Positions 3,620 through 50,953 of a stretch of DNA of 64,000 nucleotides are shown here, piece by piece. The DNA is from Alphaproteobacteria bacterium. Lineage in GTDB: Bacteria; Pseudomonadota; Alphaproteobacteria; Micavibrionales; Micavibrionaceae. The notes beneath the pieces were generated by a model. It was given only the letters and a program-made list of their open reading frames with translations. It was not told the DNA's origin and made no database searches. The position numbers and the translations under genes are program-made. How positions within the stretch are numbered: position 1 is the stretch's first letter; each line of letters starts with the position of its first letter. The stretch lies in contig JASMHE010000010.1 of the NCBI GenBank assembly GCA_030750865.1, positions 86,534 through 150,533 of the forward strand, in the 5' to 3' direction.

Positions 3620-3631
3620 TTTTATTTCAAT
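3620..3631 (-). promoter_or_regulatory. Short copy of the recurrent TTTTATTTCAAT element (ATTGAAATAAAA in gene orientation)
   Basis: The exact 12-mer TTTTATTTCAAT lies 56 nt upstream of the 108-aa gene start. In gene orientation it reads TTGAAA, a 17-nt spacer, then TATTAT, which resembles a -35/-10 pair. Confidence 0.35.
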
Positions 3632-5626: not shown

Positions 5627-6592
5627 TTATGCCGCAGCGCCAAGTGTCATGCCCGGGATAGGTGTCGCCGGTGTAATATCCTGCGCTTGCGTATTAAATT
5701 CGCTTGTCAGTTTGTCCATGTAAGCAATCATTGCCTGATCTGGATCGATTGCTGTTTCAAATCCTGCTGACAGACCGCCGCTTTGTCCAAGTGTAAACTC
5801 GCTATCTGTTGCACGTGGTGCGGATGCATCTCTGTCCAGTGTTGTTGTTTCAGGTTCTGCAACAGGCTCCGATGCTGAAATTCCCATTCTCTCAAGTTGT
5901 GTGTCGTATTCATCAATTGTCGCATCCATCTCCGAGATAACGCCATCAACAACCATTTGGTTTGCAAATTCGGCTTCTTGTTGATCTTGGCCGATATTCG
6001 TTGTGATGGAGTGTGTTGTCACTGCACCTTCGAGTGTCAGCGCTGCGGCTGAATTAAACGGGCTCATAATGCGTGCTGTGTTTACAGCTGCAGTTCCTGC
6101 GCGGGCTGCAATGCTACCGCCGCGAACCGCTGCGAGTGCTGCACCGCCGGCACCGGCTGTGGCTGCGGACACTGCGATAAATGTACCAACTTCGAATACG
6201 CCTTGTGTACCGTACATCATTGCACGTTCATAATCGTTACGTGGCTCTGTGAATTGTCCAAGTCCACTTAATGATTCTGTGCAACTGAAATCTGTTTTGT
6301 CCAAATCAACGCCAGGAACAAGGTTGACGCCATGTCTGATGCCGTGGTTATAGGCCATAAGACCGAGGTCTCCGACAGCGCCAACCGTGCCGGTTACGCC
6401 GTTAACAACACCCTGTCCTGCAACTTGAAGCATACGGCCTGGATTTTCGACGGCGTATGATGCAAAGCCGGAAACAGCATCTGATGCTGCTTCGAATGTT
6501 TCACGTGGGTGTGTTACAGCATGAGAGACGCTTGACGCGACGCTAGAGGCTGTGTCTGAAAGCCAATCTTTTGCTGAACTAAAGAAACCCAT
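5627..6592 (-). CDS. Hypothetical protein, 321 aa, Ser-rich N-terminus and Gly/Ala-rich hydrophobic segments
   Basis: ATG preceded by GGAAGGAAAAGGG. The N-terminus is MGFFSSAKDWLSDTASSVASSVSHA. Small-residue hydrophobic stretches include GVVNGVTGTVGAVGDLGLMAY and FEVGTFIAVSAATAGAGGAALAAVRGGSIAARAGTAAV. No family recognised. Confidence 0.7.
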   Translation of the reverse strand: MGFFSSAKDWLSDTASSVASSVSHAVTHPRETFEAASDAVSGFASYAVENPGRMLQVAGQGVVNGVTGTVGAVGDLGLMAYNHGIRHGVNLVPGVDLDKTDFSCTESLSGLGQFTEPRNDYERAMMYGTQGVFEVGTFIAVSAATAGAGGAALAAVRGGSIAARAGTAAVNTARIMSPFNSAAALTLEGAVTTHSITTNIGQDQQEAEFANQMVVDGVISEMDATIDEYDTQLERMGISASEPVAEPETTTLDRDASAPRATDSEFTLGQSGGLSAGFETAIDPDQAMIAYMDKLTSEFNTQAQDITPATPIPGMTLGAAA

Positions 6593-6698
6593 TTCGTGTA
6601 CCCTTTTCCTTCCGTTTTAATCTTGCCCCTATTATGGTGAGGAAAACTGAAGAAATCGTTAACAAAATGGGTTATGAGAAATAAAATTAAAATAAGAA

Positions 6699-6744
6699 TC
6701 TTTTTATTTCAATGGGTTAATAATATAAAATTTTATGTAATTTT
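6699..6744 (-). promoter_or_regulatory. Bipartite AT-rich element shared with the ctrA-fliI intergenic region
   Basis: TCTTTTTATTTCAAT (6699-6713) and TTTTATGTAATTTT (6731-6744) are both identical to 42059-42073 and 42089-42102. The element starts 107 nt upstream of the 321-aa gene start. In gene orientation it reads TTGAAA, 17 nt, then TAATTT. Confidence 0.5.
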
Positions 6745-6762
6745 TATGTTTTTACATAGAAA

Positions 6763-41243: not shown

Positions 41244-41945
41244 CTAGCCTTGTGCCGCGTTTTGCTCTTCCTGCGGGTTGCGCAGAACATAACCGCGTCC
41301 CCAGACAGTTTCGATGTAGTTATCACCGCCTGTAGCATCCTGAATTTTTTTGCGCAGTTTGCAGATGAACACGTCAATGATTTTGACTTCCGGCTCATCC
41401 ATGCCGCCGTAAAGATGGTTCAGGAACATTTCTTTTGTCAGTGTTGATCCTTTGCGCAGGGACAGCAGTTCAAGAATGCCGTATTCTTTGCCTGTCAGGT
41501 GCAATGGCTTTCCGGCTACTTCAACCGTGCGGGAATCAAGATTGACTTTCACATCGCCTGTTTCGATGATGCTTTGCGCATGCCCTTGTGAGCGGCGGAC
41601 GATGGCTTGTACCCGTGCGATCAATTCGCGTTTGTCGAATGGTTTTGTCAGATAGTCATCTGCGCCGAAGCCAAGACCCTTGATCTTGTTATCCAGTTCG
41701 GCAAGGCCGGACAGGATCAAAATCGGTGTTTCGACCTTTGCAGCCCGCAGGCTTTTCAATACATCATAGCCATCCATATCAGGCAGCATCAAATCCAGAA
41801 TGATGATGTCGTAGTCGTAAATTTTACCGATTTCCAGACCATCTTCGCCCAAATCGGTGGCGTCAACGATGTAGCCTTCCGATTTCAGCATCATTTCAAT
41901 GCTTTTTGCTGTTGATGTATCGTCTTCAACTAATAGAACACGCAT
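41244..41945 (-). CDS. ctrA: Cell-cycle master response regulator CtrA (OmpR family)
   Basis: [25 protein letters not shown]...[15 protein letters not shown]...[26 protein letters not shown]...[52 protein letters not shown]. This is a very close match to the CtrA family as I remember it. The start was set to 41945. Confidence 0.93.
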
Positions 41946-42012
41946 GATATTCATCCCCAATCACGTTAAAAATTCAAAGAACAAAGCGTTTAAAATGTCG
42001 ATTCGCTTCGCG

Positions 42013-42049
42013 TTAACCTTTATTAATATATTAACAAAGATTAACAAAG
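42013..42049. promoter_or_regulatory. Cluster of TTAA half-sites, including a tandem TTAACAAAG repeat, upstream of ctrA
   Basis: TTAA occurs at 42013, 42023, 42031 and 42041. TTAACAAAG lies at 42031-42039 and again at 42041-42049, one helical turn apart. Start-to-start spacings are 10/8/10, not the canonical 11 of TTAA-N7-TTAA. A GATTC (GANTC) site lies at 42000-42004. Confidence 0.4.
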
Positions 42050-42058
42050 TCCACAAAT

Positions 42059-42102
42059 TCTTTTTATTTCAATAGGAAAAAACACCTTTTTTATGTAATT
42101 TT
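42059..42102. promoter_or_regulatory. Second copy of the bipartite AT-rich element (ctrA-fliI intergenic)
   Basis: TCTTTTTATTTCAAT (42059-42073) and TTTTATGTAATTTT (42089-42102) are identical to 6699-6713 and 6731-6744. The element starts 114 nt upstream of the ctrA start and ends 95 nt upstream of the fliI ATG at 42197. Confidence 0.5.
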
Positions 42103-42196
42103 GTACTTTTTATAGCGCGAAATCATGTTATTTTTCGTTTTTGAAAGGCTTTTTAGGCAGTTTTTCTTCATAAAATTCTGCTATAATGGACAAATC

Positions 42197-43624
42197 ATGA
42201 CGCGTATCGCAGACAAAGTACTCGGATCGGTTTCTACAATGAAAACACACGAAATTTATGGTCGTGTGACCAAAGTGCTTGGTTTAATGGTAGAAATTGC
42301 CGGATTCGGCGATCATTTATCCATCGGGTCACATGTGACAATTCGCCCGACCGAGGGGCGGGATATTCCCTGTGAAGTTGTTGGTTTCAAGGATGAGCGC
42401 GCGCTTTTATTGCCGTTTGGTACGCTAGAAGGAATCAGTCTCGGTGCGCCTGCGATTATTCAGGAAACGCGTCCTGAAATTCACCCGACTGACGAATGGC
42501 TCGGGCGTGTCATTAACGCGCTTGGTGATCCGGTTGACGGCAATGGGCCGCTTGATAAGGGGGATGTGCATGTGCCGCTGCGCAATGTACCGCCGCCTGC
42601 GCATAACAGACAACGGATGGGAACGCAGCTTGATCTCGGCGTGCGTGCGATGAATAGTTTTCTTGCGACATGTCAGGGGCAACGGATGGGGATTTTCTCG
42701 GGCTCTGGTGTTGGTAAATCCGTGCTGTTGTCGATGATGGCCCGCTATACCGAGGCCGAGGTTGCTGTGATCGGTCTGGTCGGTGAACGTGGCCGTGAGG
42801 TACAGGAATTTCTGGAAGATGATCTGGGCGAAGATGGTTTGCGCCGTTCTGTGGTGGTTGTGGCTACGGGGGATGAGCCCGCTTTGATGCGGCGGCAGGC
42901 CGCTTATATGACGATGGCCATTGCCGAACATTTCAGGGCGCAGGGCAAAAAAGTTTTATGTTTGATCGATTCATTGACGCGCTTTGCGATGGCGCAGCGC
43001 GAAATTGGCCTCTCTGTCGGGGAGCCGCCGACCTCGAAAGGCTATCCGCCGACCACCTTCGGCGAGCTTGCACGTTTGTTGGAGCGTGCCGGACCGGGCG
43101 CGCCGGGCGAGGGGTCTATCACAGGACTGTTTTCGGTACTGGTCGAAGGTGATGATCATAACGAACCGATTTCGGATGCCGTGCGCGGTATTGTTGACGG
43201 TCACATCGTGATGGACCGTTCGATTGCCGATCGCGGGCGTTATCCGGCGATTGATGTGCTGAAGTCTGTTTCACGTTCGATGCCGGGGGCGGTATCACCC
43301 GAACGCAACCAGATTTTGAAAAAGGCCAAGCAGATCATTACCAGCTATGAAAATATGGAGGAATTGATCCGTCTGGGCGCATATCGCAAGGGCAGTGACC
43401 CTGTGGTTGATGAAGCGATAAAGATTTATCCGCAACTGGAAGAATTCTTATCACAGGACAAGGATGACAGAACATCGATCGACGACACATTTGACCGTCT
43501 GGCGGAAATCGTCGGGGGCGCATCCGGCAATAAGGCGCGCGGAAACGATCAGGCGCGTGACCGCCGTCAGTTCCAGAGTATGGGGCAGCAACCGACAGGT
43601 GGGCAGACCGAGGGTGATGCGTAA
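42197..43624 (+). CDS. fliI: Flagellum-specific ATPase FliI
   Basis: Walker A is GSGVGKS and Walker B is LCLIDSLTRFA, with an F1-ATPase beta-like fold. The start is ambiguous (42125 in the track; I prefer 42197; 42239 is also possible). Confidence 0.95.
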   Translation: MTRIADKVLGSVSTMKTHEIYGRVTKVLGLMVEIAGFGDHLSIGSHVTIRPTEGRDIPCEVVGFKDERALLLPFGTLEGISLGAPAIIQETRPEIHPTDEWLGRVINALGDPVDGNGPLDKGDVHVPLRNVPPPAHNRQRMGTQLDLGVRAMNSFLATCQGQRMGIFSGSGVGKSVLLSMMARYTEAEVAVIGLVGERGREVQEFLEDDLGEDGLRRSVVVVATGDEPALMRRQAAYMTMAIAEHFRAQGKKVLCLIDSLTRFAMAQREIGLSVGEPPTSKGYPPTTFGELARLLERAGPGAPGEGSITGLFSVLVEGDDHNEPISDAVRGIVDGHIVMDRSIADRGRYPAIDVLKSVSRSMPGAVSPERNQILKKAKQIITSYENMEELIRLGAYRKGSDPVVDEAIKIYPQLEEFLSQDKDDRTSIDDTFDRLAEIVGGASGNKARGNDQARDRRQFQSMGQQPTGGQTEGDA

Positions 43625-50774: not shown

Positions 50775-50953
50775 GACCTTTTGACTTTAAAATATTGGCG
50801 ATAAGAAAAATGCCCTAGCTTACAGTTTACGCTTTATGCGGTTCAGTTGCAAACACTTCTGGTCAGTTCTGTTGCGATGTTGTGTGCCGTAAAAGTTGCG
50901 TTTTTATTCAAAATCGCTTATATCGTATTTCTTTTGAATTCAAATGGATATAA

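Follow-up and report, generated by a model that had tools for sequence, protein, structure and literature searches.

The window is a 64-kb stretch of DNA (C10:86534-150533) from a genome of 2.19 Mb with ~50% G+C in 14 contigs. The genome belongs to a marine alphaproteobacterium, and identical DNA is found in Tara and other ocean metagenome contigs. Its nearest labelled FliI and PurH relatives bear the submitter names Micavibrio sp., Rhodospirillales or "Alphaproteobacteria bacterium". Two intergenic regions of the window are the subject of this work. The site 1 spacer (6593-6762, 170 nt) separates the stop codon of purH (6763, minus strand) from an orphan gene that encodes a 321-aa protein and starts at 6592 (minus strand). 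The orphan gene heads a gene run, here called the orphan operon, for whose proteins no family was found in Pfam, NCBIfam or PHROGs. The site 2 spacer (41946-42196, 251 nt) is divergent and separates ctrA, which starts at 41945 on the minus strand, from fliI, which starts at 42197 on the plus strand.

The two spacers share two exact words. Block A, the 15-mer TCTTTTTATTTCAAT, is found at 6699-6713, downstream of the purH stop codon and 107 nt upstream of the 321-aa gene start, and again at 42059-42073 in the ctrA-fliI spacer. Block B, the 14-mer TTTTATGTAATTTT, is found at 6731-6744 in site 1 and at 42089-42102 in the ctrA-fliI spacer. Blocks A and B are separated by 17 nt at 6.7 kb versus 15 nt at 42 kb, and together they span 107-152 nt before the start of the 321-aa gene and 114-157 nt before that of ctrA. 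A 12-mer, TTTTATTTCAAT, has four copies genome-wide. Its third exact copy (3620-3631) lies upstream of a 108-aa gene, and a loosely similar sequence, TTTTTATTCAAAAT, lies upstream of flhA (50901-50914). A first-pass annotation, made from the letters of the window, had taken these sites for copies of one regulatory element. Its strings, coordinates and spacers were all correct on re-reading, and its distances to the minus-strand gene starts (56, 107, 114 and 127 nt) hold with ctrA starting at 41945 and the 321-aa gene at 6592. Both block pairs are located in upstream control DNA, as it held.

Copy number and comparison with chance

The 15-mer and the 14-mer are each present exactly twice in the genome, once at 6.7 kb and once at 42 kb. 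A fuzzy search of the whole genome, allowing up to 4 mismatches per block and a spacer of 8-30 nt, was carried out for a third bipartite site. After the two perfect sites the best candidate was C8:631863, with 5 mismatches in total and a 9-nt spacer, and it was judged a chance match. The words that make up the blocks are not enriched in AT-rich islands, where all 8- and 10-mers occur at Markov expectation (TTATGTAA, 22 observed versus 22 expected; TATTTCAA, 41 versus 40). The 12-mer TTTTATTTCAAT was observed four times in islands versus 0.85 expected. Since two of these four copies belong to the pair itself, neither the copy at 3620 nor that at 50901 exceeds chance expectation. Without graded matches or word enrichment, and with two of its members at chance level, the proposed four-copy element and its regulon could not be upheld.

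Two copies per block also mean that the element is not a generic dispersed repeat, a point on which the first-pass annotation was right. Repetition itself, and nothing further, would suggest a relic of a small mobile element or dispersed repeat of the MITE, REP or Correia type, or else a pair of sRNA genes. The genome holds no near matches to the two copies, terminal inverted repeats were not seen, and related copies were not found in other taxa. RNA folds of both strands of both sites gave z-scores of -1.4 to +0.5, with no significant or shared structure relative to shuffled sequences, and the Rfam covariance models returned no match in the whole window at gathering thresholds. With two copies, no structure and no Rfam match, an origin from a mobile repeat or sRNA is effectively refuted and retains a negligible probability. 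Membership in the REP, MITE, ERIC or Correia class was likewise rejected on copy number and on the hairpin or inverted-repeat criterion.

To what extent can chance account for the pair? The genome was cut into 1722 AT-rich islands (<=33% G+C), which were compared all versus all (1.48 million pairs). Single exact 13-15-mers between an AT-rich spacer and the rest of the genome are common, and the 170 nt of the 6.7-kb spacer alone have four other exact 15-mer matches in the genome. When the 1.48 million island pairs are ordered by gapped local score, this pair comes 22nd, within a smoothly decaying tail. The high-scoring island pairs C3/C7, C13/C13 and C1/C1 were considered as comparable cases and rejected, as they are part of larger paralogous regions.

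The arrangement of the matches was assessed with a chain statistic, defined as two collinear exact matches of at least 11 nt, no more than 40 nt apart, with a diagonal shift of no more than 5. This statistic was chosen after seeing the data. As the null, 60 genomes' worth of order-3 Markov islands were generated. The pair has a chain score of 29 (15+14), and the simulated maxima were 22-27. The genome-wide P for a chain of 29 is about 0.01, extrapolated from the simulations for a statistic picked post hoc. Apart from the pair, all real chains of at least 27 are evident longer repeats (C2/C8, taken as contig ends, C13/C13 and C3/C7), and the next real chain scores 24. A chain of 29 was never reached in the 60 simulations, which bears out the earlier claim that a 15-mer and a 14-mer recurring in order exceed chance. 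In other haplotypes of the species, block A matches at 14/15 positions and contains an exact run of 12 nt; with this reading the chain drops to 26, a value reached in ~0.13 of the simulated genomes.

Outside the blocks the two sites are no more alike than random island segments. This holds for the 30 nt before block A (P 0.37), the spacer between the blocks (P 0.63) and the 30 nt after block B (P 0.08), the last of which had been credited with a looser similarity. The patchy pattern, in which two exact words stand in unrelated surroundings, is not the signature of a drifted duplication. The 24-nt bipartite core was also sought in public metagenome and genome collections and found at 17 loci. 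Two of these are from the same species (L074 and L077), both at site 1. The remaining 15 belong to unrelated AT-rich organisms (for example SAR86, Gastranaerophilales and Clostridia) and are chance matches, showing that such words arise readily in AT-rich DNA.

Pure coincidence would mean that a 12-15-mer and a 14-mer came to be shared, without common descent or function, by two independent AT-rich control regions that are each built from phased T-tract words (TTTTAT...). The abundance of exact 13-15-mers between AT-rich spacers, the place of the pair in the smooth tail of gapped scores, the matches in unrelated organisms and the unrelated spacer and flanks are all in keeping with it. So is the lower chain of 26, which is obtained with the ancestral base of block A at site 1 (see below). 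Against it stand the absence of a chain of 29 from every simulated genome and the fact that this is the sole isolated pair of its kind in the real genome. Coincidence is a possibility to be taken seriously, but we doubt it, and comparison with a second species bears on it further.

Conservation of the ctrA-fliI spacer

One informative sister species (L088) was found through its FliI and PurH homologues (87% and 80% amino acid identity, respectively); its ctrA is 82% identical at the nucleotide level. From 42010 to 42078 the sister species is identical to the window at 65/69 positions (94%), and the ctrA-proximal and fliI-proximal parts of the spacer match at 33/96 and 61/118 positions. The conserved stretch contains an array of TTAAC half-sites upstream of ctrA (42011-42050), of which all 40 nt are identical in the sister species and which is recognisable across the family. 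It is followed by a conserved 21-nt run, ACAAATTCTTTTTATTTCAAT (42053-42073), that holds the whole of block A copy 2 (15/15 in the sister species). Judged by this conservation, block A at 42 kb clearly behaves as constrained, functional DNA and forms the outer edge of a conserved ctrA-fliI control module.

The history of block B is different in this spacer. It lies within a 21-nt segment (~42088-42108) flanked by TTTTTA direct repeats, and the sister species is without the segment. The outgroups L086 and G001 could not be aligned across this 21-nt indel stretch. The extra segment, TGTAATTTTGTACTTTTTAT, matches 6736-6755 at 15/20 positions by manual count. The 4 nt inside the putative copy are not shared (GTAC versus TATG). 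The block B side of the similarity thus coincides with an indel relative to the sister species, which argues against coincidence. Within the species, haplotype L052 has an A to G change at 42097, inside block B copy 2.

The 40 GTDB genomes closest to this one, among them a member of the same genus, are too distant (ctrA ~76% nt identity) to be informative about the blocks. In them a TTAAC(AA) array with a ~10-nt period lies upstream of ctrA. Neither block A nor block B was found upstream of ctrA in these genomes. The CtrA box, TTAA-N7-TTAA(C), has a canonical 11-nt period and is found at alphaproteobacterial ctrA and class II flagellar genes. The two sites resemble such control regions in that the 42-kb copy abuts the conserved TTAAC array and a single conserved TTAAC lies at ~-35 of the probable orphan-operon promoter. 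They differ in that the blocks themselves lack TTAA and the adjacent array has a ~10-nt period. Moreover, neither TTAAC nor TTAACAA, used as a proxy for the CtrA regulon, is enriched genome-wide.

The array and ACAAATTCTTTTTATTTCAAT, together with GGAAAAAA, make up a 72-nt module (42011-42082) that is ~94% identical to the sister species, the rest of whose spacer could not be aligned; the period of the array in the module, ~10 nt, is not the canonical 11.

Conservation and variation downstream of purH

In the sister species the spacer 3' of purH is 57% identical overall. Block A is represented by a 10-nt identical run, its core TTTTATTTCA (6702-6711 in the L088 alignment). The positions of block B are present as TTTTATTCTTTTTT, with 4 substitutions and no indel. 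The first 6 nt of block B are kept, and they form the right half of a perfect palindrome, ATAAAATTTTAT (6725-6736), that is itself kept in the sister species. Within the blocks at 6.7 kb, conservation therefore extends to TTTTATTTCA of block A and these 6 nt of block B. The two loci of the sister species have only a 10-mer in common, as pure coincidence would allow. Since block A is constrained at 42 kb, and since its core at 6.7 kb is one of the longest runs to be conserved there, a factor common to both sites may bind block A.

Between the two species, no conserved run in this spacer is longer than the 12-nt palindrome ATAAAATTTTAT, which closely follows purH. The palindrome might act as an operator or belong to a weak terminator of purH.

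Contigs encoding identical or near-identical proteins supplied further haplotypes of the species, four of them non-reference at site 1 (purH 1.4-3.2% divergent). All four read TCGTTTTATTTCAAT (TCGTTTT...) and match block A at 14/15 positions. Because the sister species and 4/4 non-reference haplotypes have G at position 6701, the reference T, which completes the 15-mer, is derived. Directly after block A lies a multi-allelic trinucleotide (6714-6716; GGG, AAG, GCC or GTG) whose differences include dinucleotide changes. Among the five haplotypes every spacer polymorphism falls within the 21 nt from 6701 to 6721 (6701 T/G, 6714-6716 and 6721 T/C), and the other ~150 nt of the spacer are invariant despite the divergence of purH. 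This cluster could reflect a hot spot of mutation or recombination, or it could mark the sole unconstrained positions.

Both blocks are polymorphic within the species (6701 in block A, 42097 in block B), suggesting, from small numbers, that they are not protected from substitution. Together with the missing block B at the ctrA-fliI spacer of the sister species, this result speaks against constraint on a bipartite unit. In the same-genus GTDB genome, purH is likewise followed by a homologue of the 321-aa gene, with a spacer of 472 nt. No collinear counterpart of the blocks was found in that spacer.

Strains differ greatly in the first gene of the orphan operon (5627-6592 in the window; L077, 502-1428; L008, 1-963; L088, 5553-6608). 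One contig is 94.7% identical over 695 aligned nt, comprising the purH 3' end (purH 3.2% divergent), the spacer and the 5' end of the gene, and only the first ~115 nt of the 321-aa gene align; its product is a 308-aa variant. The sister species homologue of the 321-aa protein is 32% identical. The N-terminus is conserved and the rest variable, and small acidic genes follow downstream, a pattern that resembles polymorphic toxin/immunity or surface-protein loci.

Promoter signals

The first-pass annotation had proposed that the minus-strand reading of the blocks supplies a TTGAAA -35-like hexamer. An extended form of this proposal is a shared sigma-70 module in which TTGAAA would be the -35 for both the orphan operon and ctrA, and block B an upstream activator or UP site. 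Plausible promoters can be written on the minus strand at two places, TTGAAA-N17-TAATTT at 6.7 kb and TTGAAA-N17-TATTAT at 3.6 kb, and 4/4 copies of the 12-mer are oriented toward a downstream gene. At 42 kb, on the other hand, there is no acceptable -10 at 16-18 nt (CTTTGT), and none follows on the minus strand at 50.9 kb. The sister species has CTGAAA without a -10 at the purH locus, and a consensus promoter scan did not call the TTGAAA promoters. A terminator scan found no terminators.

The conserved signals lie elsewhere. At 6.7 kb the run CCCTATTAT (6627-6635, minus strand; sense ATAATAGGG) is conserved versus L088 and lies ~65 nt further downstream. ATAATAGGG is probably the -10 region of the orphan-operon promoter, with a conserved TTAAC (6659-6663) at ~-35. 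It is retained in the sister species where TTGAAA is not, and a shared sigma-70 module is accordingly very unlikely. At ctrA the sole consensus promoter found by the scan is a predicted TGGACT-N17-TATATT on the minus strand.

The plus-strand reading, by which the blocks would serve fliI, fares no better. A putative extended -10, TGCTATAAT (42179-42187, plus strand), ends 9 nt before the fliI ATG (42197) and lies ~80 nt away from the blocks. Next to fliI the sister species has TGTTATAAT, in which TG(C/T)TATAAT is kept and ends 7 nt before the ATG. The conserved position of TGCTATAAT suggests that fliI mRNA may be leaderless or near-leaderless.

Relative to the predicted ctrA promoter start, block A occupies ~-41 to -55; relative to the probable start of the orphan operon, it occupies ~-75 to -89. 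These differing distances from the conserved core promoter signals argue against a common promoter architecture. At both loci the putative core promoter signals fall outside both blocks.

Discussion

Much of what the first-pass annotation described is sound, namely a link beyond chance between two upstream sites that is not due to a dispersed repeat. What it built on that link, a regulon, a TTGAAA -35, a reading for fliI and a constrained bipartite element, did not stand. Our tentative preference, with a probability somewhat short of even, is for a one-off, species-specific patchy resemblance between two AT-rich promoter-upstream regions that involves no dedicated co-regulation.

In this resemblance two parts of different age would be combined, an old shared A/T word (block A) and a small, recently copied patch (block B). 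By its position, block A at 42 kb may be the A/T-tract flank of the predicted ctrA promoter, serving as an UP-like or DNA-bending site. At 6.7 kb only the 10-nt core TTTTATTTCA would be old, and chance sharing of a word of this length is ordinary in the spacers of this genome. Block B would be young at 42 kb, where, on the simplest account, ~20 nt from downstream of purH may have been copied into the ctrA-fliI spacer, templated through TTTTTA microhomology. Alternatively, the segment may have been lost by slippage in the sister lineage. The consequence is likely to be generic, one more phased T-tract in curved upstream DNA rather than specific co-regulation of the two loci. The more distant relatives, which have the TTAAC array and neither block, fit a one-off event. 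The derived T at 6701 counts against it, as this base belongs to the commonest haplotype and raises the likeness of the sites, which selection or gene conversion would predict as well.

Known systems offer partial parallels. Microhomology-templated insertion or short-patch ectopic gene conversion would be consistent with a ~20-nt, TTTTTA-bounded segment that is present in one species only and resembles a same-strand segment 35 kb away. Here, though, the interior 4 nt differ and no second example was seen in the genome. UP elements and phased A-tract curved DNA are likewise AT-rich, with T-tracts ~10 nt apart, and the position of block A at the predicted ctrA promoter is in line with them; the positions of the blocks relative to the core promoters are unlike between the two loci. 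The nearest concept is that of putative mobile promoters, in which similar non-coding DNA is found at -150 to -50 of unrelated genes and upstream regions must be 80% identical or more across a minimum of 50 nt (Nijveen, Matus-Garcia and van Passel 2012, PMC3575422). The present pair is similarly placed, upstream of two unrelated proteins (the 321-aa protein and CtrA), and in both cases there is no tie to a known mobile element. It falls below the identity threshold, however, as its best local alignment is 41/56 (73%), shorter and patchier, and its core promoter signals are probably outside the similarity.

We also considered whether A and B form a true bipartite operator, recognised by one regulator or by an architectural protein of the IHF, MucR or GapR kind that couples the orphan operon to ctrA-fliI. 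Two exact blocks with a free spacer have the look of such a site; the 2-nt difference in spacer length can be held against it. At 42 kb block A is strongly conserved, at 6.7 kb its core is retained, the derived T at 6701 increases the identity of the sites, and motility and chemotaxis genes surround both loci. The IHF consensus is WATCAANNNNTTR. The 6.7-kb copy, TTTCAA-TGGG-TTA, agrees with it at 12/13 positions, and the hypervariable trinucleotide falls in its NNNN positions. The 42-kb copy, TTTCAA-TAGG-AAA, lacks the TTR part, having AAA instead. Other results are also difficult to reconcile with an operator. Block B is absent from the ctrA-fliI spacer of the sister species and altered at purH, both blocks vary within the species, no third site, graded matches or word enrichment was found, and block A lies at unequal distances from the core promoter signals. 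A bipartite operator is therefore unlikely.

A related proposal is that the two loci are being kept alike. The strain-hypervariable orphan operon would be tied to the control of ctrA and fliI by a bipartite docking site peculiar to this lineage, at which an architectural protein or dedicated regulator would bind, and the site would be maintained or renewed by the exchange of short patches. This proposal agrees with the 21-nt patch at 42 kb and with the derived T at 6701, but we regard it as distinctly improbable. Were it true, it would give a rare view of the birth of a cis-element at a new promoter, and it would connect a strain-variable orphan operon with ctrA and with the control of flagella in a marine relative of Micavibrio-like bacteria.

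As it stands, the result is of limited significance. It removes the tempting regulon reading and illustrates how so striking an exact match can be produced by an old A/T word together with a young patch. The comparison also provides landmarks for the ctrA-fliI control region, the 72-nt module and the putative near-leaderless fliI promoter.

One further difference between the two species was seen in this spacer. At 42076-42092 the window reads AAAAAA-CACC-TTTTTT and the sister species AAAAAA-GGTG-TTTTT, so that the loop of an A6/T6 inverted repeat is swapped for its reverse complement. Such a CACC/GGTG swap is the signature of a putative hairpin-templated inversion.
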